A DNA stretch of 32,272 nucleotides, from positions 1 through 32,272 of the forward strand of contig JBGQGY010000028.1 of NCBI GenBank assembly GCA_041497675.1, given 5' to 3'. The stretch's first letter is position 1, and every line of letters begins with the position of its first letter. Below are positions 1,029 through 9,916 of this stretch, in pieces. A program made the translations under genes and the position numbers. The notes beneath the pieces were generated by a model that made no database searches, was not told the DNA's origin, and was given only the letters and a program-made list of their open reading frames with translations. Origin of the DNA: a bacterium (GTDB lineage: Bacteria; Sysuimicrobiota; Sysuimicrobiia; Sysuimicrobiales; Humicultoraceae).

Positions 1029-3293
1029 TTAATCCCTGCCCGCCAGTTTGCGCGTGACCAGGTCCTGCACGATCTGTGGGTTCGCCCGGCCGCCGGTCTC
1101 CCGCATGACTTGCCCCACGAAAAACCCGACGGTCGCCGTCTTGCCAGCGTGGTGCGCTGCCGCCTTGTCCGGATGCTCCGCGATCACCCGTTCCACGATG
1201 GGGGCAATGGCCGTCGCATCGCTCACCTGAGTCAATCCCCGCTGTTCGACGATCCCGACGGGATCTTCGCCGGTTTCGAGTGCCGTTGCCAGCACGTCGC
1301 GGGCAGTGCGGGTGTTGATGGCGCCCTTCTGAAGTAGGTCCACCAACGCCGCCAGACGGGCCGGGGGCACCCGTGTGTTTCCTGCCCGAATGGCGGGCCC
1401 CAATTCATTGACGATCCACGTCGCAAGCGTGCCGGCGTCTCCGTGACGAGCGGCCTCGTCGAAGTACGCGGCGAGCGGTGCTTCGCGGGCGATCTGTTGC
1501 GCGGGTGTCAGGCCCGCGGCCTTCGCGGTCTTGACCGGCGTCGGTGCGGCCGGCTCGACGCGCTCGGGGCGGCCATCGACATTGGTTGTCTCGTCAGTGC
1601 GTGTCCACGAATCGCGCAGGGTGACAATGCGGTTGAAGATCGGGTGAGCCGGGCTCGAATCTACCGGATCGGGCCAGAAGTACCCCAACCGCTCGAACTG
1701 GTAGCGGGTATCTGGGGAATCCCCTGCGACGCTCGGTTCGACGAACCCTTCGACGATCGCGAGCGACCGGGGATTCAGGTGCTCGGTAAACTCCCCCTCG
1801 CCGGCCTCGGGATCGGGCGTGGTGAAGAGACGGTCGTACAGGCGTACTTCTGCAGGCACCGCGTGCGCGGCGGCCACCCAGTGAATCGTGCCTTTCACCG
1901 AGCCTCCGGCCGGCTGCCGGCCCAGCGTGTCGGCGTCGTAGGTGCATCGCAGCTCGACGATCTCGCCCGCGGCGTCTTTGACCACATCGTCGCAGCGAAT
2001 GACATAGGCGTGCCGCAGCCGCACGCGGCCGCCGGGCTGGAGCCGGTAGAACCCTTTCGGCGGGTGTTCGATGAAGTCATCGCGCTCGATGTAGAGTTCC
2101 CTCGAGAAGGGGATGGTGCGCGAGCCCGTCTTGGGTACGTCATGGGGCCAGTAGGGCGCGTCGAGGTGCTCGACCTGGCCGGGCGGGTAGTTGGTGAGGA
2201 CCACCGTCACCGGTCTGAGCACGGCAAGGACGCGGGGTGCCCGGTAGTTCAGGTCGTCACGGACGGCGGCGTCGAAGGTGGCGACGTCCACCCGGTTGTT
2301 GGCCCTCGCCACCCCAATGCGGTTGGTAAACTCGCGGATGGCCTCTGGGGTGATCCCACGCCGCCGCAGACCCGAGATCGTGGGCATGCGCGGGTCGTCC
2401 CACCCCTGGACGTATCCGCCCTCCACGAGCCGGATCAACTTGCGCTTCGACAACACCGTGTAGTCGAGGCTCAGCCGGGCGAACTCGTACTGGTAAGGGC
2501 GGGGCGACTGTGGCAGCCCGCACAGGCCGCGCAGGTTCTCCACGAGCCAGTCGTAGATGGCACGGTTGTTCTCGAACTCGAGGGTGCAAATGCTGTGCGA
2601 GATGCCCTCAATCGCGTCGGACAAGGGGTGGGCGAAGTCGTAGAGCGGGTAGATGCACCACGCTCGTCCGGCCCGGTAGTGGGGTGCGTGTACGATGCGG
2701 TAGAGCACCGGGTCGCGCAGCTTCATGTTGGGGTTCGCGAGGTCGATCTTCGCCCGCAGCACGTGCGCGCCGCCGGAAAACTCGCCGCGCCGCATGCGCT
2801 CGAAGAGATCGAGATTCTCACGCACCGTACGCTCGCGATGAGGACTGGGCCGGCCCCGCTCCGTGATGGTGCCGCGATAGGCGCTGATCTCCTCGTCGGA
2901 CAGGCTGTCGACGTAGGCCTTGCCATCCTTGATGAGCTGCAGCGCGAACTCGTGCAGCCGGTCGAAATAGTCGGAGGTGTAGAGTTCCCGCGCCCACTGG
3001 AATCCTAACCACAGGACGTCGCGCTTCATGTTCTCGACGTACTCGATCGATTCGGTCTCGGGGTTCGTGTCGTCGAATCGCAGATTGCACTCGCCGTCAT
3101 AGTCGAGCGCAAGGCCGAAGTTCAGACCGATGGACTTGGCGTGACCGATGTGCAGGTAGCCGTTGGGTTCCGGGGGAAAACGCGTGACGATCTTCGCATA
3201 GCGACGCTGCCGGAGATCGTCATCAATGATCTCCGTGATGAAGTTCGGGCTGACGCGCCGCTCGCGTGGTGCCAGGTCGAGATCGCGCTTCAT
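1029..3293 (-). CDS. glnS: Glutamine--tRNA ligase with C-terminal GatB/Yqey domain
   Basis: TRFPPEPNGYLHIGH (HIGH motif), LRFDDTNP, LSKRKL, CTLEFENNR, YQFERLGYF. C-terminal VGFFVGQVMRETGGRANPQ is GatB/Yqey-like. Start moved to ATG 3293, which has an AAGGAG RBS. Confidence 0.96.
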   Translation of the reverse strand: MKRDLDLAPRERRVSPNFITEIIDDDLRQRRYAKIVTRFPPEPNGYLHIGHAKSIGLNFGLALDYDGECNLRFDDTNPETESIEYVENMKRDVLWLGFQWARELYTSDYFDRLHEFALQLIKDGKAYVDSLSDEEISAYRGTITERGRPSPHRERTVRENLDLFERMRRGEFSGGAHVLRAKIDLANPNMKLRDPVLYRIVHAPHYRAGRAWCIYPLYDFAHPLSDAIEGISHSICTLEFENNRAIYDWLVENLRGLCGLPQSPRPYQYEFARLSLDYTVLSKRKLIRLVEGGYVQGWDDPRMPTISGLRRRGITPEAIREFTNRIGVARANNRVDVATFDAAVRDDLNYRAPRVLAVLRPVTVVLTNYPPGQVEHLDAPYWPHDVPKTGSRTIPFSRELYIERDDFIEHPPKGFYRLQPGGRVRLRHAYVIRCDDVVKDAAGEIVELRCTYDADTLGRQPAGGSVKGTIHWVAAAHAVPAEVRLYDRLFTTPDPEAGEGEFTEHLNPRSLAIVEGFVEPSVAGDSPDTRYQFERLGYFWPDPVDSSPAHPIFNRIVTLRDSWTRTDETTNVDGRPERVEPAAPTPVKTAKAAGLTPAQQIAREAPLAAYFDEAARHGDAGTLATWIVNELGPAIRAGNTRVPPARLAALVDLLQKGAINTRTARDVLATALETGEDPVGIVEQRGLTQVSDATAIAPIVERVIAEHPDKAAAHHAGKTATVGFFVGQVMRETGGRANPQIVQDLVTRKLAGRD

Positions 3294-3383
3294 CGCGCTC
3301 CTTTGGGCATTAGGATACACGGTCCGGTCTCGTGTGGAAATGGATCGCAGGACGTCGGCGCGCGCGTGTCTAAGCGAGCGGGT

Positions 3384-4361
3384 ATGGCGACTCACCACTT
3401 CCGGCCCGACCACTATCACGTCACGATTGGCTCCCACGACGCCGTGTTGCGGATTGCCGACGGCGACACCGTGGTGACCACCACCGTGGACGCCCGGGGC
3501 GGCGATGCCTCAGGACGCAACGTCACACCGGGAGGCAATCCTCAGACCGGGCCGTTTTTTGTCGAGGGCGCGGAACCCGGCGACACCCTCGCCGTACGCT
3601 TCGAGCGGCTCGTCCCAAACCGGGGCACCGGTTTTTCGAGGATCATCGTGGCGCCGAATGTCGTTGATCCATATCATGTTTCCGCGCTGCCGGCCGTGGG
3701 CGATGAGGTCGCCGAGTGGAGCATCGATCGGGACCGGGGCACGGTCACGCTGTTGAGCCCTGGGACCGCCCTGGGACGGCTGACGCTTCCCCTGGCACCG
3801 ATGCTCGGGTGTTTCGGGGTCGCGCCGCCGCTCGGCCAGGCCATCTCGACGGCCACGTCCGGCGAGCACGGCGGCAACATGGACTATCGGGGTTTCGCGA
3901 CCGGCGTCACCGTCTACGTTCCCGTCTTTGCGCGGGGCGCGCTGCTGCACGTGGGCGACGGGCACGCCGTGCAGGGCGATGGCGAGATCGTCGGCACCGG
4001 TGTCGAGACGTCGTTTGACGTGGAATTCACGGTCACGGTCGTGAAGCGCAAACGCATCCGCTGGCCACGAGGCGAGAGCCGGACGCACATTTTCACCGTC
4101 GGCAACGCGCGCCCGCTCGACCAGGCCGTGCAGCACGCGACGACCGAGATGCTTCGATGGTTGGGTGAGGACTACGGTCTGGACGCGCGGGCGGCCGGCA
4201 TCATGCTGGGACAGTGCGTCGAGTACGATCTTGGCAACGTCTACGATCCCGCGTACACGATGGTCTGCAAGGTGTCGAAGCACGTGTTGCAGGAGATAGC
4301 GCGCAATTCGCAAGAGGCCGACGCGTGTCGATCGACTCATGCGTCCCGGCCGAGCGCGTAG
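3384..4361 (+). CDS. Acetamidase/formamidase family protein
   Basis: NPQTGPFFVEGAEPGDTL, HGGNMD and GDGHAVQGDGEIVGTGVE motifs. Start set at ATG 3384 (MATHHF), outside glnS. Confidence 0.9.
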   Translation: MATHHFRPDHYHVTIGSHDAVLRIADGDTVVTTTVDARGGDASGRNVTPGGNPQTGPFFVEGAEPGDTLAVRFERLVPNRGTGFSRIIVAPNVVDPYHVSALPAVGDEVAEWSIDRDRGTVTLLSPGTALGRLTLPLAPMLGCFGVAPPLGQAISTATSGEHGGNMDYRGFATGVTVYVPVFARGALLHVGDGHAVQGDGEIVGTGVETSFDVEFTVTVVKRKRIRWPRGESRTHIFTVGNARPLDQAVQHATTEMLRWLGEDYGLDARAAGIMLGQCVEYDLGNVYDPAYTMVCKVSKHVLQEIARNSQEADACRSTHASRPSA

Positions 4362-6970
4362 GCGATCAGCCGGTCCAGCGGCAGCGTCTGCCCGTCATTC
4401 CACGCGGTCCTGATCGTCTGTTCGTCAACGGGTTGTTCGCCTGGGCGGTAGCGGCCCTCCGCCTTGTTGAGGACAGCCGCGAGATCGGTGCCGCTTTGCT
4501 TTTGCAGGGCGGCCGCTCCTCCGGCGAGCCGCGCGGCGCGCGGAACATCACCCTCGGTCAAGGCGAGGCTGGAGAGATCGTCGAAGAGGAGGGCCAGCCC
4601 CGTGACGTCCCGAGCTTCGCCGAAGAGGCTCAGACCTTCGCGGAAGGCGGCGCGGGCCACGTCGAAATCGCCGGTCTTCACCGTGACCACCCCGAGGATG
4701 TGGAGGGCCCAGCCCAGGCTGAACCGGTCGTCGATCCGCCGGAAGGTCGGCAGGCTGAGATCGAGGTGGTGGCGGGCGGCAGGGTAGTCGCCGGCGAAAT
4801 GCGCGAGACTTGCCAGCGCCCAGTGCACGCGCGCCATGCCCGCGTCATCGCGCGCCTGCGTGTACAGCGCCAGGCTCTCATCAAGCAGCGATTGCGCGGT
4901 GGCCACGTCGTCCTGCTTGAGGAAGAACACGAACGAGAGATTGTACAGCGCGCGTGCGATCGAGATTGGATCGCCGATCTCGCGCTGCATCGCCAGGCTC
5001 TCCTGATAGAAACTGCGCGCCGCGTCGAGATCGCCCTGCCAGTACGCGATGCCGCCCGCGGCCTCGAGCACCAGAGCCCGGACGCCCGGAGAGCCGCCGG
5101 GCATCTGCACGATGGCGGTGAGTTTGGCGCGGGCCTCCTGGAGGTGACCGCGCATCTGCCAGAAACGCCACAGCGCCGCACCCAGCAGCATCGCGGTTTC
5201 GGTGTCGCCCGTGTCCATTGCCCACGAGAGGGCGGCACGGACATTGTCGTGCTCGTCCTCGAAGCGGTCGAGCCACGTCATGCGGTCGCGGCCGGTCAGA
5301 TGGGGCTCAGCCTGCTGCGCGAAAGCGAGGAGCATCATCGCGTGACGCCGGCGGATCTCCTGGGCCTCGCCGCTTGTTTCAAGACACTCCCCAGCGAACT
5401 CGCGGATCGTCTCCAGCATCGCAAACCTCGGCTCGGCGTGGATCTCTTCCTGGCGCAGCAGGCTGTGATCCACCAGTCCGGCCAGCCCGTCGAACACATC
5501 GCGGCCGAGGTCGGCGGCCGGGCCGCACACGGTCTCCGCCGCGTCCAGCGAGGCGCCGCCGACAAACACGGAGAAGCGCGCAAGCAGCCGGCGACCGGCG
5601 TCATCGAGCAGATCGTAGCTCCAAGCGATCGCGCCCCGCAGCGTCTGCTGGCGGGCAGGCAGATCCCGCGACCCGGTCGTCAGCAGGCTGAGGCGGTGTT
5701 GCAGCCGCGCCAGCATGGCCTGGGGCGGCAGCAACTTGATCCGAGCGGCCGCCAGTTCGATCGCCAGTGGAAGCCCGTCGAGCCGCGTGGTGATCTCCGC
5801 GACCGCCGGCGCGTTGTCGTTTGTGACGACGAAGTCGGGTTTGACCGTGACCGCTCGTTGAATGAACAGCGCGACGGCCTCGTACTGCGACAGCGACTCT
5901 AACGACGGCAAATGACGGGGATCGGGGAGGCCCAAAGGCGGGACTCCAAACTCTTGCTCCCCATACACACGGAGGACGACCCGGCTGGTCACCAGGATCT
6001 TGAGACCGGGGCTGGACTTGAGCAGGTCGCCGACCAGCGCAGCCGCGGCGACGACCTGCTCGAAGTTGTCGAGGATCAACAGCATCCGCTTCCCGGCGAG
6101 GTACTCGCGCAGGCTTTCACGCGAGTCGTGACGCCCGGATTCCTTCAGCCCGAGAGTCTGGGCAATCGTCGACGCGACCAGCCCGGCGTCCGTGACCGGC
6201 GCCAGCGGGACGAAGTAGACGCCGTCTTGGAATTGCTCCAGCAGATTGGCGGCGAGTTCAAGCGACAGACGTGTCTTTCCCGTGCCCCCGGGGCCCGTAA
6301 GCGTGAGCAGCCGCGTCCCCCCGAAGAGCCGTTGCGCTTCGGCGAGCTCGCGCGCTCTGCCGACGAAACTGGTCAACTGGACCGGCAGGTTGTTTGGCAT
6401 CAGGTCGAGGCTGCGCGGCGGCGGGAACTCCGCCGGCAGGCCTTCGCCCGCGAGTTGGTAGATGTGCTCAGGTCGCTGGAGGTCTTTGAGCCTGTGCTCC
6501 CCCAGGTCGCGCAGCCCGGCGCCGGTGGGGAGCGCGTGCTGGATCAAGACCCGCGTCGACTGCGACAGAAGAATCTGCCCGCCCCAGGCGGCGGCGCAGA
6601 TCCGTGCGGCGCGGTGGACGTCGAGACCCACGTAGTCCCTGCCGACGGGTGTGGCCTCGCCCGTGTGCAGTCCCATGCGCACCCTCAAGACGACGCCTTC
6701 AGGCCAGCGCGCAGCGAGCAGCGCACGCTGCGCGGCGAGTGCTGCGGCCGTGGCGCGCGCGGCGCTTGCAAAGACGATGAAGAACGCGTCGCCTTCGGTG
6801 TTGACCTCGTGACCCTGTTCGGCGTCCACTGCCGCGCGCACCAGCCGCCGGTGCTGTTCGAGACAGGCATCGTAGCCGGTCCCCAGCTCCTGGAGGAGAC
6901 GCGTGGACCCCTCGATATCCGTAAACAGGAAGGTGACTGTGCCGGCCGGTAACACGCGCAACTCTTTCAC
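4337..6970 (-). CDS. Class III adenylate/guanylate cyclase - STAND (NB-ARC-like) ATPase - TPR protein
   Basis: Cyclase: TFLFTDIEGSTRL, EGDAFF, RMGLHTG, HRAAR. STAND: GPGGTGKT P-loop, LLILDNFE Walker B, GLPLA. C-terminal TPR-like helices. The start may instead be GTG 6955. Confidence 0.9.
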   Translation of the reverse strand: MKELRVLPAGTVTFLFTDIEGSTRLLQELGTGYDACLEQHRRLVRAAVDAEQGHEVNTEGDAFFIVFASAARATAAALAAQRALLAARWPEGVVLRVRMGLHTGEATPVGRDYVGLDVHRAARICAAAWGGQILLSQSTRVLIQHALPTGAGLRDLGEHRLKDLQRPEHIYQLAGEGLPAEFPPPRSLDLMPNNLPVQLTSFVGRARELAEAQRLFGGTRLLTLTGPGGTGKTRLSLELAANLLEQFQDGVYFVPLAPVTDAGLVASTIAQTLGLKESGRHDSRESLREYLAGKRMLLILDNFEQVVAAAALVGDLLKSSPGLKILVTSRVVLRVYGEQEFGVPPLGLPDPRHLPSLESLSQYEAVALFIQRAVTVKPDFVVTNDNAPAVAEITTRLDGLPLAIELAAARIKLLPPQAMLARLQHRLSLLTTGSRDLPARQQTLRGAIAWSYDLLDDAGRRLLARFSVFVGGASLDAAETVCGPAADLGRDVFDGLAGLVDHSLLRQEEIHAEPRFAMLETIREFAGECLETSGEAQEIRRRHAMMLLAFAQQAEPHLTGRDRMTWLDRFEDEHDNVRAALSWAMDTGDTETAMLLGAALWRFWQMRGHLQEARAKLTAIVQMPGGSPGVRALVLEAAGGIAYWQGDLDAARSFYQESLAMQREIGDPISIARALYNLSFVFFLKQDDVATAQSLLDESLALYTQARDDAGMARVHWALASLAHFAGDYPAARHHLDLSLPTFRRIDDRFSLGWALHILGVVTVKTGDFDVARAAFREGLSLFGEARDVTGLALLFDDLSSLALTEGDVPRAARLAGGAAALQKQSGTDLAAVLNKAEGRYRPGEQPVDEQTIRTAWNDGQTLPLDRLIAYALGRDA

Positions 6971-7029
6971 GACGCGTGGAGCAAACCCTCTCGCCGGGGC
7001 AGGCCGGGCCCCCTCCGGCTCGAAACATC

Positions 7030-7890
7030 ATGGGCATGGATGACCCGATCACCGTGCGCGTGGTGACCGACGCGGATGCCACGGCGGCGCGCGCGCTGGT
7101 CGCGGCGTGCAACCGACATGAGGGGCTGGATCTGGCGGTCAACCTCGGCCGCCCGGCGGTGGGCGAGCCGGCAAATCAGTTCGTCTGCCATGAGAGCCAC
7201 ACGCTGGTGGGCATCGCCACGCTGGAGCCTCATCAGGAGATCGAAGCCTGCGTGGCGGTTCACCCCGGCCACCGGCGCCGGGGTTTCGGCCGGCGGCTGC
7301 TCGACGCGATCAAGACGCAAACCCGCGAACGGGGAAAGCGATCGTGTCTGCTCGTCTGTGAGGAGGCCTCCGCGTCGGGACGCGGGTTTGTGACCACGGC
7401 GGGGGCGCGGTACCGAAACGCTGAGCACCGGATGCGCCTGCACACTGAACACACCGGCGTCCCGAGCATCCCCAGGACGGCCCTGCGGTTGGAGCGCGCG
7501 CAGCCGGTGCACCTCGAGGCGGTCGGTCGCATCCTGGCCGCCTCCTTCGGGTCAGATCCTGTCCACGAGCAGCAGCGTGTGGTCGGGGATCTCCGAAAGC
7601 CGACGCACCGGTACTTCGTGGCGACGCTTGGCGGCGAGCCTGTTGGGACCTTTGGGGTCGTGATTGCGGAGGGGCGTGTCTACATCATCGGGTTTGGGAT
7701 TCTGCCGGTGTTCCGTGGTCAGGGCCACGGCCGGACAATGCTGCGTGACGCGATCGAACTCTTGACACGGGAACGGTGGCGAGAGATCTATCTCGAGGTA
7801 GCGACTGAGAACGAACCGGCGGTCGCGCTCTATCGCTCCGCCGGCTTTGGTGTGACGTCGACGTACGGGTTTTACGAACTGGCGGTGTGA
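7030..7890 (+). CDS. Tandem (two-domain) GNAT acetyltransferase
   Basis: Two acetyl-CoA motif A copies (VHPGHRRRGFGRRLL; ILPVFRGQGHGRTML) and NEPAVALYRSAGF. Start uncertain (6976, 7030 or 7036). Confidence 0.85.
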   Translation: MGMDDPITVRVVTDADATAARALVAACNRHEGLDLAVNLGRPAVGEPANQFVCHESHTLVGIATLEPHQEIEACVAVHPGHRRRGFGRRLLDAIKTQTRERGKRSCLLVCEEASASGRGFVTTAGARYRNAEHRMRLHTEHTGVPSIPRTALRLERAQPVHLEAVGRILAASFGSDPVHEQQRVVGDLRKPTHRYFVATLGGEPVGTFGVVIAEGRVYIIGFGILPVFRGQGHGRTMLRDAIELLTRERWREIYLEVATENEPAVALYRSAGFGVTSTYGFYELAV

Positions 7891-9206
7891 CCGCCGAAGG
7901 CCTTGGCCAGATACTCCAACGCTTCGGCATCGGCCCCCGCGTCCTTGAGGACGACGCTCAATTCGGCGGCCGCGGCGGCGGCCTCGCTTTCAAGCCCCAG
8001 TCGCCCCAACGTGGAGGCGGCGTCACGCAGGAGGTGCACGGCGTCGGATCGGCGGCCCTGCGCGATCTGGACTCGCGCCAACGTGATCTGCGCCCAGGCC
8101 TCGCGCGCCTCATCGCCGACGCTCTGCGCGTCGCGTATCGCGCCGCGGGCCGCCCGGGCGGCATCCGTATGACGACCCGATGCCAACAATGCGAGCGCCA
8201 TCTCTTCCAATGTGGCGCTGCGCCCTCGTCGATCGCCCAACTGCTCGCGAATGCGCAGCGCCTGCTCAAACGCGGCCAGCGCGTCGCCCAAGCGTCCCTG
8301 TTCCCGGCGGACGACGCCCAGGTTGCTGAGCGTGCGGCTCATTTCTTTCAGATCTTCGGCGAGCGAGAGCGCGTCGTGTGCCTGAGCCAGGAAGTCCGCG
8401 GCGTTGTCGTGACGTCCTCGTGCGCGCTCGACCTGTCCCAGACCGGTGAGCGCGCGGCCGCGAAGACCCTGAAGACGGAGACGCGTTGCGAGCTGCAGCG
8501 CGCGCCGATAGGCGCGTTGGGAGCGGTCGAGATGGCCGAGATAGAATCGTGCCGCTCCGAGTGACAGGAGAGCGCGGACGTTTTCTTCGGTCCGCGCCGT
8601 CTTCGTGCGCCTCAGGATCTCGACGGCCTTTTCGAGGATCGGCAACGCGCGCGCGTAGTTACCCCGCCGCACTTCGATCAGACCCTTGAACGCGAGCGCT
8701 ATCCCCACGGCACTACCGAGGCGGTGCCGGCCCGCGGCGGCAACCGCTTCGTCCGCCCACTGGGCGGCTTCGTCGAGACGGTCCCCGGCAATCGAGGCGT
8801 GAGTCCGTACCAGGGCGGCCCGGACCATGATCTCCGCAGGCATGTCCGGCAGCAGTGCTTCAGCGGCGGCGGTAATTTGTACGGCTTCTGCCCCATGTGC
8901 ACTGAGGTCCATGTCGGAAGCAAGACGCAGGAGGTTCAATGCCGTCTCGCGTCTGAGTTCGGTGGGGTCCATCAGCAGGGAGGCCACCGACGTACCCAGA
9001 CGCCGGGAGAGCGCCACGACCGTCTCAACCGAGGGATACGATCGACCGCTTTCTAGAAGGCTGATGAAACTTTTCGTGAGGTCGGGTGCGGCGAGCCCCT
9101 CTTGGGTCAACCCCGCCCGTCCCCGAGCCAGCATGAGACGGCGCCCAAACTGCACGAGCCAGTCTGGCGCGGACTGGCGCGGGGTGTTTGGGGAGGGTTG
9201 AGGCAC
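7872..9206 (-). CDS. XRE-family HTH transcriptional regulator with TPR domain (RRNPP-like receptor architecture)
   Basis: N-terminal FGRRLMLARGRAGLTQEGLAAPDLTKSFISLLESGRSYPS (HTH_3) followed by TPRs such as RTLSNLGVVRREQGRLGDALAAFEQALRI. Start set at GTG 9206 because a promoter-like element lies just upstream; the ORF track extends to 9287. Confidence 0.88.
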   Translation of the reverse strand: MPQPSPNTPRQSAPDWLVQFGRRLMLARGRAGLTQEGLAAPDLTKSFISLLESGRSYPSVETVVALSRRLGTSVASLLMDPTELRRETALNLLRLASDMDLSAHGAEAVQITAAAEALLPDMPAEIMVRAALVRTHASIAGDRLDEAAQWADEAVAAAGRHRLGSAVGIALAFKGLIEVRRGNYARALPILEKAVEILRRTKTARTEENVRALLSLGAARFYLGHLDRSQRAYRRALQLATRLRLQGLRGRALTGLGQVERARGRHDNAADFLAQAHDALSLAEDLKEMSRTLSNLGVVRREQGRLGDALAAFEQALRIREQLGDRRGRSATLEEMALALLASGRHTDAARAARGAIRDAQSVGDEAREAWAQITLARVQIAQGRRSDAVHLLRDAASTLGRLGLESEAAAAAAELSVVLKDAGADAEALEYLAKAFGGHTASS

Positions 9207-9215
9207 AACAAACGT

Positions 9216-9245
9216 ATCGTACCACTCATCTGCCGGTCTGATCAA
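9216..9245 (-). promoter_or_regulatory. Putative sigma70 promoter of the HTH-TPR gene (near-leaderless)
   Basis: Minus strand: TTGATC-N18-TACGAT with an extended -10 TG; 9 nt from the -10 to GTG 9206, and no SD sequence. Confidence 0.55.
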
Positions 9246-9317
9246 GGTGAGCCAGCCCCCGCGCCTGACGGCCGGCAGCGGCCTCACCCTCCCCGGTTAC
9301 GTGTGCCGCGAGACTCG

Positions 9318-9446
9318 CTAGCCTCCGTCAGGCCCTTCGCCGGGCCCGCTGACCCTCAAGTCAACCTGAGACATCGGCATCGGAGCCAGTCCAATGAGCA
9401 CGAGCGCGGCAATCGCAGCGAGCGCGATCCGTAAGGCTTTCGCCAT
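9318..9446 (-). CDS. Small secreted propeptide (42 aa), candidate signalling-peptide precursor
   Basis: ATG 9446 to TAG 9318 encodes MAKALRIALAAIAALVLIGLAPMPMSQVDLRVSGPGEGPDGG. GGGAGG RBS just upstream; basic n-region, hydrophobic h-region and polar tail. Below the ORF-track size cutoff. Confidence 0.75.
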   Translation of the reverse strand: MAKALRIALAAIAALVLIGLAPMPMSQVDLRVSGPGEGPDGG

Positions 9447-9490
9447 GGTGATCCCTCCCGTGGGATTTTGAATTGGGGGCTCACACGGGA

Positions 9491-9528
9491 GTTTCAATGT
9501 CTACAATTGCTAATCCTCCGTGAGGATT
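9491..9528 (-). promoter_or_regulatory. Putative sigmaH-like promoter overlapped by a 7-bp palindrome, upstream of the small peptide
   Basis: Minus strand GGAGGATTA-N12-ATTGAAAC resembles the sigmaH consensus RNAGGAWWW-N11/12-RNNGAAT. Palindrome AATCCTC-cgt-GAGGATT at 9512-9528. Confidence 0.35.
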
Positions 9529-9595
9529 GTTGCAGGATGCCGTCCGGCAGCGGGTTAGCAGGGAAGCGGCGAAGCCGGGAGAAAGGAAGTGGCAC

Positions 9596-9916
9596 ATGCC
9601 CCGACGCTCGGCTGCGCCCGTCCGCGCGCGCCTACGCGCCCGGTTGACAGATCAACTGTGGCGCGCGATCTTGTGCCTTCGTACGCCGGAGGACTGCTAT
9701 CGCTTTTTTGAGGATGTGTGCACGATCGGCGAGATCCGTGCGATCGCCTCACGACTTGAAGTCGCGCGGCTGCTGGCCGCGGGGTTGACGTACGAGGAGA
9801 TCGCCCGCCGGACGGGCGCGAGTAGTGCCACGATCAGCCGGGTGCGGCGGTTCCTGGAGTATGGAGCGGACGGATACCGGGTCGTGCTCGACCGGCTGGC
9901 GCGCGGTCGCGGCTAA
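9596..9916 (+). CDS. yerC: TrpR-like repressor, YerC/YecD family (predicted HisR)
   Basis: CYRFFEDVCTIGEI...RLEVARLL...TYEEIARRTGASSATISRVRRFLEYGADGY matches YerC. ATG 9596 has an AAAGGA RBS. Confidence 0.9.
   Translation: MPRRSAAPVRARLRARLTDQLWRAILCLRTPEDCYRFFEDVCTIGEIRAIASRLEVARLLAAGLTYEEIARRTGASSATISRVRRFLEYGADGYRVVLDRLARGRG

Follow-up and report, generated by a model that had tools for sequence, protein, structure and literature searches.

A conserved small pre-peptide gene tied to an XRE-type HTH/TPR regulator in Candidatus Sysuimicrobiota: a candidate RRNPP-like peptide-receptor module

The stretch of DNA discussed here, which we call the window, covers positions 1 to 32,272 (32,272 nucleotides) of contig JBGQGY010000028.1 (assembly GCA_041497675.1), from a bacterium of the uncultured phylum Candidatus Sysuimicrobiota, formerly CSP1-3. 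On its minus strand, a 42-codon open reading frame (ORF) for a putative secreted pre-peptide lies immediately upstream of the gene for a regulator with an XRE-type helix-turn-helix (HTH) and a long array of tetratricopeptide repeats (TPRs), referred to below as the receptor. We consider here the evidence that the two form a peptide-receptor module like those of the RRNPP family. The features of the pair are as follows.

9318..9446, minus strand: pre-peptide gene, 42 codons plus TAG (ATG 9446-9444, stop TAG 9320-9318), product MAKALRIALAAIAALVLIGLAPMPMSQVDLRVSGPGEGPDGG
9453..9459, minus strand: Shine-Dalgarno sequence GGGAGGG, 6 nt ahead of the peptide ATG
9318..9350, minus strand: candidate mature-peptide region, the last 10 codons (SGPGEGPDGG) and the stop
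7872..9206, minus strand: receptor gene, 444 residues, GTG start, soluble product
8982..9134, minus strand: XRE-type HTH, residues about 25-75 (Pfam HTH_3, E 1.6e-6, at residues 52-102 of the 471-residue frame)
7893..8966, minus strand: TPR superhelix, residues about 81-438, with 18 helices forming nine helix pairs

The coordinates and product of the small ORF, read again from the letters, are the same as those of the initial annotation, made from the sequence alone; the strong GGGAGG ribosome site it had described is present as GGGAGGG at 9459-9453, and the distance to the receptor gene that it had put at about 110 nt measures 111 nt. Its description of the ORF as unannotated holds only in the sense that the public entry carries no name: the exact 42-residue product already sits in the public protein collection (eight contigs), which means that gene callers have detected the ORF. 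The peptide matched no family in Pfam or NCBIfam, and the 23 pattern matches obtained in a collection of viral contigs included no relative.

Is the small ORF a gene, and does it belong with the receptor? Receptor loci were drawn from three sets, namely, homologues in 41 related genomes together with the host's own paralogues, 58 loci from a collection of species-representative genomes, and 20 further places chosen, as full-length matches at about 25-38% identity, from about 150. After 19 duplicate pairs were merged and three loci with less than 250 nt of upstream DNA (L047, L062, and L097) were set aside, 67 distinct loci were left. Candidate peptide genes were called by a rule that takes a closed, co-stranded upstream ORF containing a 12-residue window with a hydropathy of at least 2.3, a start 2-14 codons earlier with Lys or Arg in between, and 6-65 residues after the window. 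The rule yields a candidate upstream of the receptor at 41 of the 67 loci, compared with 2 of 67 regions in the antisense-strand control and, among 3000 segments drawn at random from the host genome, with 36 (1.2%), 6 of which have a Shine-Dalgarno-like site. Among the 41, L061 and L075, both from the clade of receptors that lacks the peptide gene, have a different small ORF upstream of the receptor, with two hydrophobic segments (...KRRFPISPLAGG...), and one true case, L094, escaped the rule because its four repeats lengthen the tail beyond the limit. The count of family-like peptide genes is 40 of 67 loci, co-oriented with the receptor gene and 30-220 nt upstream of it. By clade, the gene is found at 24 of 33 window-type and L014-type loci, at 16 of 18 L022-type loci, whose receptors are only about 26% identical to that of the window, and at none of the 16 loci of a third clade. 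The initial annotation had proposed looking for the ORF beside receptor homologues, and the ORF is indeed kept there down to 26% receptor identity. If two unpublished genomes, G019 (L013) and G010 (L017), are left out, the counts become 38 of 65 loci and, for the LpxC survey described below, 24 of 25 genomes; the stretches of L013 and L017 are also present in the public collection, as L038 and L056.

The association can also be approached from the side of the peptide. A profile built from 16 peptides was run against 77,034 six-frame ORF segments of the host genome and gave three matches (E<=1.6e-7), the next best (E 0.21) being an ordinary signal peptide. The three lie on contigs C28 (the window), C51, and C7, each directly upstream of an HTH-TPR receptor paralogue, and in other genomes the same profile found nine more distinct peptides, none of which had been used in building it. 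GGAGG-type sites precede nearly all homologous peptide genes; over 12 related, non-independent pairs of peptide genes, differences at codon positions 1, 2, and 3 number 104, 62, and 192; and between contigs of close strains seven of the eight listed differences within the ORF are synonymous (a reading by hand, with 24 further differences outside the listing). Based on the ribosome sites, the third-position excess, and the mostly synonymous strain differences, the ORF is translated by sequence criteria, and the comparison as a whole shows that it encodes a conserved protein and goes together with the receptor gene.

The window peptide starts with the n-region MAKALR, which has two Lys/Arg residues, continues with a 15-residue uncharged, Pro-free run, IALAAIAALVLIGLA, and closes with a 21-residue remainder ending in SGPGEGPDGG; its highest 19-residue hydropathy mean is 2.31. 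All 25 aligned peptides share this n/h/c layout, with one to three Lys/Arg residues near the N terminus, an uncharged, Pro-free run of 15-22 residues (median, 16), and a remainder of 15-27 residues in which acidic residues outnumber basic ones; in 21 of the 25, Pro immediately follows the run. The layout looks like a Sec signal peptide to which a very short exported segment is attached, which is how the initial annotation had read it, and a run with a median of 16 residues would be short for a membrane anchor.

The C-terminal end of the peptide follows the motif [AS]-[DG]-[PG]-x-x-P-x-G-G, and the terminus is GG in 20 of the 25 peptides. Seven natural 42-residue variants differ by six substitutions, at residues 7, 8, 13, 23, 25, and 31, with none in the last 11 residues, and in sets of orthologues (L001 versus L003; L043 versus L053; L011, L012, and L049) the spacer varies by substitutions and indels while the tail is kept. 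Between paralogues of the host genome, in contrast, the tails differ (SGPGEGPDGG, TDIDAPGGG, and AGDGNIEVI x2), and one Fervidifonticultor genome has paralogue tails ADTDGPDGG and ADPDWPGGG. A tail that is conserved among close variants and diverges between paralogues is the pattern to be looked for if, as first suggested, the mature signal derives from the C-terminal region, and the tail behaves as the functional part of the pre-peptide. The L022-type clade supplies the strongest evidence: there the tail unit stands in tandem, from two to at least five times, namely, AGDG[NS]IE[VI]I in two copies (L022 and L088), GGHGDIEALGGWA in two copies (L090), AGHGDGE[VI]LGGA in three copies (L091), AGHGDGELLNGG(G)W in three or four copies (L094-L096), and SAGHGDGGV in at least five copies (L097, at a contig end). 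Units of this clade are also written AGHGDGELLNGGGW, in three or four copies, and AGHGDGEVLGGA, in three, and in the nearer clade L016 carries two copies of APELPGEN. A single signal peptide followed by repeated units of 8-14 residues is expected of a precursor that is cut into several copies of a short peptide; the repetition in the sister clade adds independent support for a short processed peptide. Several pheromones within one propeptide have been reported for phage Rap-Phr systems (PMC11343458).

The receptor frame is open from GTG 9287 (471 residues), and the start shared by 21 homologues is GTG 9206, where the N termini read M-[AP]-[QK]-P-S. Pfam finds only HTH and TPR families in it (HTH_3 at 28.4 bits against a cut-off of 23, TPR_12 at 8.8e-25, and TPR_MalT at 1.7e-14), which, with the conserved start, agrees with the earlier picture of a 444-residue protein consisting of an XRE HTH and TPRs alone. 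There is no hydrophobic segment (top 19-residue hydropathy mean, 1.05). For the receptor, every NCBIfam model stays below its cut-off; HaaT, the TPR model of a pathway for a ribosomally made, post-translationally modified peptide (RiPP), scores 45 bits against a cut-off of 1125. An AlphaFold2 model based on an alignment of 21 homologues (mean predicted local distance difference test score [pLDDT], 92.5; predicted template modeling score [pTM], 0.80) has five short helices at residues 15-78, corresponding to the HTH, and 18 helices from residue 81 to 438.

A VIA-align structure comparison of this model against about 48,000 representative solved chains gave as its best matches LGN (Z 31.6), Pins (Z 30.5), RapI (Z 28.1, 350 residues aligned, root mean square deviation [rmsd] 4.2), the TPR domain of O-GlcNAc transferase (Z 25.3), Rap of phage phi105 with its peptide (Z 24.9), NprR with NprX (Z 23.8, 338 residues aligned, rmsd 6.5), RapH (Z 23.0), domain III of MalT (Z 22.6), PlcR with PapR (Z 19.1, with the HTH included, model residues 17-299), and AimR (Z 17.7). 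Foldseek ranked LGN first and placed the Rap proteins at ranks 31-38, and a sequence profile matched designed consensus TPR proteins at 8e-75, RapJ at 5.6e-10, and RapF at 1e-8. Nine-TPR and five-TPR classes of RRNPP receptor are distinguished in the literature (PMC12700828). As modeled, the fold is fully compatible with a nine-TPR RRNPP receptor and does not single out RRNPP among peptide-binding TPR superhelices. The comparison with NprR and PlcR proposed in the initial annotation hence has a mixed outcome, with Rap, NprR, PlcR, and AimR all among the matches but no closer than generic eukaryotic TPR proteins. Rgg, ComR, and PrgX did not appear in the fold lists, which does not count as evidence either way. 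A complex prediction for receptor residues 80-444 and peptide residues 13-42, with both alignments, scored 0.28 against a mark of 0.32 and counts neither way.

The host has components that such a module would use. Its genome (G000; 3.97 Mb in 272 contigs, 98.6% complete, with 3.6% contamination, from the same family as genome G007) encodes two signal peptidase I genes. It also gives 116 matches to SBP_bac_5, the family of Opp/Dpp-type binding proteins, an unusually large expansion for 4 Mb; oligopeptide-type binding proteins are abundant in this host, in which the initial annotation had suggested looking for an Opp importer. Omp85/BamA and LpxC are found on one host contig (G000:C8:43169-44068 and C8:48641-49441), and LpxC is present in 25 of the 26 related genomes searched, the exception being 72% complete. 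Since the genome encodes BamA and LpxC, the lineage is probably a lipopolysaccharide (LPS) diderm, and the same gene content suggests that the phylum, filed under Bacillati, is probably LPS diderm. The expectation of a host outside the Firmicutes was correct, but a probable outer membrane had not been foreseen.

Further features surround the two genes and bear on how each might be expressed.

9493..9517, minus strand: conserved block AGGATTAGCAATTGTAGACATTGAA, candidate promoter and operator, upstream of the peptide gene
9475..9484, minus strand: predicted 5' arm of a long-range RNA helix, GTGAGCCCCC, in the peptide 5' untranslated region, between the block and the ribosome site
9247..9260, minus strand: predicted 3' arm, GGGGGCTGGCTCAC, 58 nt past the peptide stop, with a 4-nt bulge in the window
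9216..9245, minus strand: promoter-like pair, TTGATC at 9245-9240, 18 nt, and TGG-TACGAT at 9221-9216 (TGGTACGAT), ending 9 nt before the receptor GTG
9596..9916, plus strand: divergent YerC/YecD-family, TrpR-related gene (Pfam Trp_repressor, E 2.7e-27), putative ATG 9596

By eye, a block similar to the one ahead of the peptide gene occupies the same place at window-type loci, and at some of these another AGCAATTA box stands about 30 nt upstream of it. Dyad symmetry is seen at some loci, an example being AATAGCAAT-T-ATTGCTATT in L048. The 12-mer ATTGTA[AG]ACAT occurs only twice in the 4-Mb host genome, at the peptide genes on C28 and C51. GAGCCCCCAA was tried as a genome-wide motif and rejected, with six sites, four of them inside unrelated ORFs.

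Between the block and the ribosome site lies a sequence of the general form GGAGCCCCC(AA), the reverse complement of which is found 14-90 nt past the peptide stop. With the 5' ten-mer anchored by alignment, 9 or all 10 of its positions can pair (Watson-Crick or G-U) at 21 of 23 loci (L003-L060), the random expectation per locus for those 21 being 0-27 in 300. Compensatory changes occur at four or more helix positions (for example, A:T 15 versus G:C 6; G:C 17 versus T:A 2; C:G 18 versus T:A 2). The covariation points to an RNA helix that would enclose the ribosome site and coding region of the peptide gene and that might act in processing, stability, or translation control. Whole-window duplex energies, compared with shuffles and with non-cognate partners, gave no discrimination in this G+C-rich sequence, whereas the anchored pair count did. 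The minimum-energy fold of the window (z -1.13) is without the long-range helix and consists of two local hairpins, one of them over the peptide ribosome site; the 3' arm is paired locally in this fold. Two other elements were seen in the same region. An 11-nt inverted repeat (9455-9465 and 9481-9491, 10 of 11 positions complementary) would as RNA hide the Shine-Dalgarno sequence of the peptide gene; it is present in L001 and L002 and not evident in L003. A G-rich box at 9285-9300 on the minus strand, GGGGAGGG in the window and GGGGGAGGG at most loci, stands 20-35 nt past the peptide stop and in the window pairs locally with the region of the 3' arm.

The promoter-like pair ahead of the receptor has counterparts, again by eye, in the form of CTTG... 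and TGGTAnnnT elements, equally spaced and conserved at homologous loci whether or not these have a peptide gene. Because the pair ends 9 nt before the GTG and no Shine-Dalgarno sequence follows it, the receptor mRNA is probably leaderless, and the receptor probably has a promoter of its own. The peptide transcript would then be either separate and structurally closed or the first part of a longer one. Scans of 9100-9700 returned no terminator, no Rfam match at E<=1, and, with a consensus promoter search, a single hit on the plus strand, the promoter-like pair of the receptor being unflagged.

Based on these observations, we lean, with slightly more belief than doubt, toward reading the pair as a chromosomal RRNPP-like peptide-receptor module of NprR-like architecture (an XRE HTH plus nine TPRs). 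In this model, the 42-residue pre-peptide would be made from its own promoter and strong ribosome site, and its short signal sequence would insert it N-in into the Sec pathway. Signal peptidase, other proteases, or both would free a short, acidic, Gly/Pro-rich C-terminal peptide, here from within SGPGEGPDGG. At a sufficient concentration, this peptide would re-enter the cell, probably via an oligopeptide-type ABC importer, and bind the cytoplasmic regulator, whose gene lies 111 nt downstream, on the concave side of its TPR superhelix. We posit that binding would alter the hold of the regulator's HTH on its operators, the likely operators being the conserved AGCAATTGTA boxes at the peptide promoter; this arrangement would give autoregulation, and the divergent YerC/YecD-type gene could possibly be controlled as well. 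What we observe at the locus and in the genome is the pair and its conservation, the layout of the peptide and the behavior of its tail, a soluble HTH plus nine-TPR receptor, signal peptidase I, and the binding proteins of importers. It is from these that we infer that the peptide is exported and cleaved, which part of it is the mature signal, that it is re-imported and bound, and which genes are regulated. A wider proposal takes peptide pheromone signaling with a cytoplasmic receptor to be native to the uncultured LPS-diderm phylum Ca. Sysuimicrobiota, with several paralogous pairs per genome, multi-copy precursors, a covarying 5'-3' helix closing the peptide mRNA, and a leaderless receptor mRNA; this we put forward tentatively, at somewhat less than an even chance.

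Several observations weigh against the module as just described. In the window peptide, Pro comes right after the small-residue end of the h-region, GLA, and would keep signal peptidase I from cutting there. In fold, every RRNPP receptor is outscored by generic eukaryotic TPR proteins (LGN and Pins), and consensus TPR proteins far outscore RapJ by sequence; with generic TPR proteins ranked higher on both counts, the comparisons do not establish common descent with the RRNPP family. In a host with BamA and LpxC, a Sec-exported peptide would meet the periplasm first, unlike in all of the described RRNPP hosts, and the Gly/Asp/His-rich repeats could serve some other end, such as metal binding. 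Finally, 27 of the 67 homologous loci have no peptide gene of this family. The quorum-sensing-like module of the initial annotation therefore fares well on linkage, layout, tail, host, and importers and less well on the loci without a peptide gene, on the probable outer membrane of the host, and on a kinship with RRNPP receptors that the fold does not single out.

The distribution of the 27 deserves a closer look. Sixteen form one well-supported clade, with receptors of 34-47% identity from other families of the order, and two, L102 and L104, belong to the L022-type clade. The remaining nine are close relatives of the window receptor (53-68% identity), mostly from Fervidifonticultor. At seven of these nine loci (L006, L009, L010, L033, L035, L036, and L067), the receptor stands head to head with the same YerC/YecD-type gene as in the window, with no peptide ORF in the intergenic DNA, and these receptors may be orphans; the genomes of the close peptide-less receptors hold other, peptide-linked paralogues. 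Receptors without a propeptide gene have been discussed for Rap and AimR (PMC9765709). On a quick maximum-likelihood tree of 53 full-length receptors, which took in only rows with the whole receptor gene and wrongly labeled L047 and L062 (too little upstream DNA) as without peptide, the peptide label changes no fewer than five times, and well-supported branches force four of these changes; receptors with a linked peptide gene lie to either side of the midpoint root. Some receptors may plausibly have lost the peptide gene. On C7 of the host genome (L108), an L022-type receptor with a repeated-unit peptide (5049-6335, plus strand) converges on a second HTH/TPR gene (6581-7852, minus strand) that has no peptide gene of its own and just 98 nt of upstream DNA; similar convergent receptor pairs are repeated in many related genomes.

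Could the same pair have another purpose? Conceivably, the peptide is itself the exported product, with a metal-binding, envelope-active, or antimicrobial role, and the HTH-TPR protein only controls it while sensing something else, with neither re-import nor contact between the two. Such a cargo would suit tails that are rich in Asp, Glu, and Gly, and in the L022-type clade in His, and it would suit tandem repeats, which could bind ions; the generic TPR fold, delivery to the periplasm of a probably diderm host, and the 27 of 67 receptors that do without a peptide gene all point the same way. We nevertheless consider this unlikely. The tie between peptide and receptor is tight and old, spanning clades that are about 26% identical, with peptide genes going one to a receptor and no further neighbor conserved; tails diverge between paralogues of one genome, as expected of specificity pairs; and a single-copy tail, with its 9-10 residues, is very short for a structural or antimicrobial peptide. 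Less probable still is an extracytoplasmic or membrane-tethered micro-protein, either an uncleaved anchor or a product acting in the periplasm on another sensor, to which the receptor would be linked by co-expression only. The Pro after GLA in the window peptide does obscure the cleavage site, and the uncharged run reaches 20-22 residues in 6 of the 25 peptides, but a median run of 16 residues followed by Pro suits a signal peptide better than a membrane span. An anchored peptide of this kind would also leave a cytoplasmic N terminus of about six residues, which offers nothing for a cytoplasmic TPR protein to grip, and the tandem repeats point to release of the units.

We give very little weight to the idea that the peptide is a multi-core RiPP precursor, with the HTH-TPR protein as the regulator of its cluster. 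Repeated core-like units are known in some precursors, and the match to HaaT, at 45 bits against 1125, is weak and sub-threshold; against these points, no modifying enzyme or dedicated exporter is conserved beside the pair, the neighbors differ at the three host loci, and the N terminus looks like a Sec-type signal rather than a leader. A chance ORF, or a regulatory upstream ORF whose translation and not its product matters for receptor expression, seems hardly credible. Although Ala/Leu-rich ORFs are plentiful in high-GC DNA and the rule fires in 1.2% of random segments, the layout and tail motif are kept across receptors that are only 26% identical, the peptide profile leads to a receptor paralogue genome-wide in three of three cases, third-position differences are in excess, and the receptor appears to own a promoter.

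The window is ordinary chromosome of 63-71% G+C, with genes for a GlxRS-type tRNA synthetase, a GNAT protein, the his operon, an ABC transporter, and M23 and S41 peptidases, and no phage or plasmid genes were seen in it. The YerC/YecD-family gene (126 bits to NCBIfam TIGR02531, cut-off 42.2) adjoins the receptor at 17 loci, with the peptide gene present or absent, and is a conserved neighbor of window-type orthologues; it is a possible regulatory target of the receptor. Surroundings differ among the three host loci, with GNAT and YerC/YecD at one, a subtilase at another, and HpaB and homoserine dehydrogenase at the third. The subtilase (Peptidase_S8, L109, G000:C51, 3061-4305, minus strand) lies directly upstream of the C51 pair on the same strand and could be a processing protease or a target. 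As a conserved partner of the pair it was rejected, being found at the C51 locus alone among the loci compared. Elsewhere in the window, two genes from the module, 4337-6970 (minus strand) encodes an 877-residue STAND-type protein with an adenylate/guanylate cyclase, an NB-ARC-type NTPase, and TPRs, and the host genome has many long TPR proteins of this STAND-like kind. The gene at 1029-3437 (minus strand) encodes a fusion in which a class I Glu/Gln-tRNA synthetase carries a GatB/YqeY domain at its C terminus.

Why would such a module matter? The large RRNPP survey, as its text describes it, covered only Firmicutes and viruses (PMC10075063), and RRNPP signaling is treated as a Bacillota/Firmicutes trait in the available text of PMC12700828 and PMC9765709; in the literature consulted it belongs to Bacillota and their mobile elements. 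A structural phylogeny names the missing outgroup of the RRNPPA family as an open point (PMC12700828). Supplements aside, the word quorum is absent from the CSP1-3 genome papers searched, no paper joining RRNPP and Armatimonadota was found, and the term RRNPP is absent from the literature retrieved on the phylum and cell-envelope terms. With a family of receptors and propeptides conserved and diversified in another phylum, and a probably diderm one, the known range of RRNPP-type communication would become wider. If the receptors have a common ancestry with RRNPPA, they would be the missing outgroup, and they would also show that signaling of this kind either is older than the monoderm Bacillota or had an origin independent of them; the pair offers a test of whether the RRNPP family is older than Bacillota. 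In a language-model atlas, look-alike HTH_3 plus TPR_12 clusters are seen in Chloroflexota, Actinomycetota, and Dormibacterota, which suggests that the phenomenon may extend beyond the phylum. Synthetic peptides of 9-14 residues and a few receptors would also give a handle on an uncultured lineage that is widespread in soil, groundwater, and hot springs.

How, then, does the pair compare with the systems already described? RRNPP_detector defines a candidate as a TPR receptor of 250-500 residues with an adjacent propeptide of 10-100 residues at a gap of -60 to 400 bp, and the published tool scores the secretion signal of the propeptide by SignalP or PrediSi (PMC10075063). At 444 residues, 42 residues, and 111 nt, the window pair fits the receptor size, propeptide size, and gap of that definition. 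NprR-NprX shares with it an N-terminal XRE-type HTH, nine TPRs, a similar receptor size, and an adjacent propeptide gene of about 40 codons, whose product has an export signal (here a predicted one) at the N terminus and its active part (here a candidate) toward the C terminus. The sizes of NprR and NprX, and a mature peptide located near the C terminus, are known from the Bacillus cereus group. The differences are that the peptide gene here is upstream rather than downstream, co-oriented, with a conserved promoter block of its own, that the receptor mRNA is probably leaderless, and that the sequence kinship is only that of generic TPRs; the host is uncultured and probably LPS diderm, and the tails are acidic, Gly/Pro-rich, and mostly GG-ended. 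In AimR-AimP and PlcR-PapR, too, a receptor with an HTH and TPRs is paired with a neighboring propeptide, which there is secreted and has the signal in its C-terminal residues; in these, however, the peptide gene is downstream, the systems are on phages or in Bacillota, and PlcR has five TPRs. Arbitrium peptides commonly end in Gly-Gly or Gly-Ala, and the resemblance to the GG ends found here is only a lead.

An upstream position of the peptide gene is known from the Rgg-SHP systems of streptococci, in which the SHP gene can precede the receptor gene. SHP genes are, however, usually divergent, and their products leave via a dedicated exporter and not via Sec (PMC7564271); Rgg, moreover, has five TPR-like repeats. 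Rap-Phr provides the best RRNPP structure matches (RapI at Z 28.1, Rap of phi105 at 24.9, and RapH at 23.0) and, in RapJ, a sequence match at 5.6e-10. Multi-copy propeptides occur there (PMC11343458) as in the L022-type clade, and so do receptors without a propeptide gene (PMC9765709). Rap proteins nonetheless have no HTH and act on protein partners, phr lies downstream, and the repeats seen here reach at least five copies. With MalT-type and other STAND regulators, the receptor shares the TPR_MalT match (1.7e-14) and the similarity to MalT domain III (Z 22.6); unlike them, it has no NTPase domain (NB-ARC or AAA) that Pfam detects in the 444- or 471-residue frame, and the nearby STAND protein with cyclase, NB-ARC, and TPR domains (4337-6970) is a separate gene. 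Set against all of the described systems, the pair departs in five respects: the order of the genes, the conserved RNA helix, a receptor mRNA that is probably leaderless, acidic tails ending in GG, and, above all, the host.

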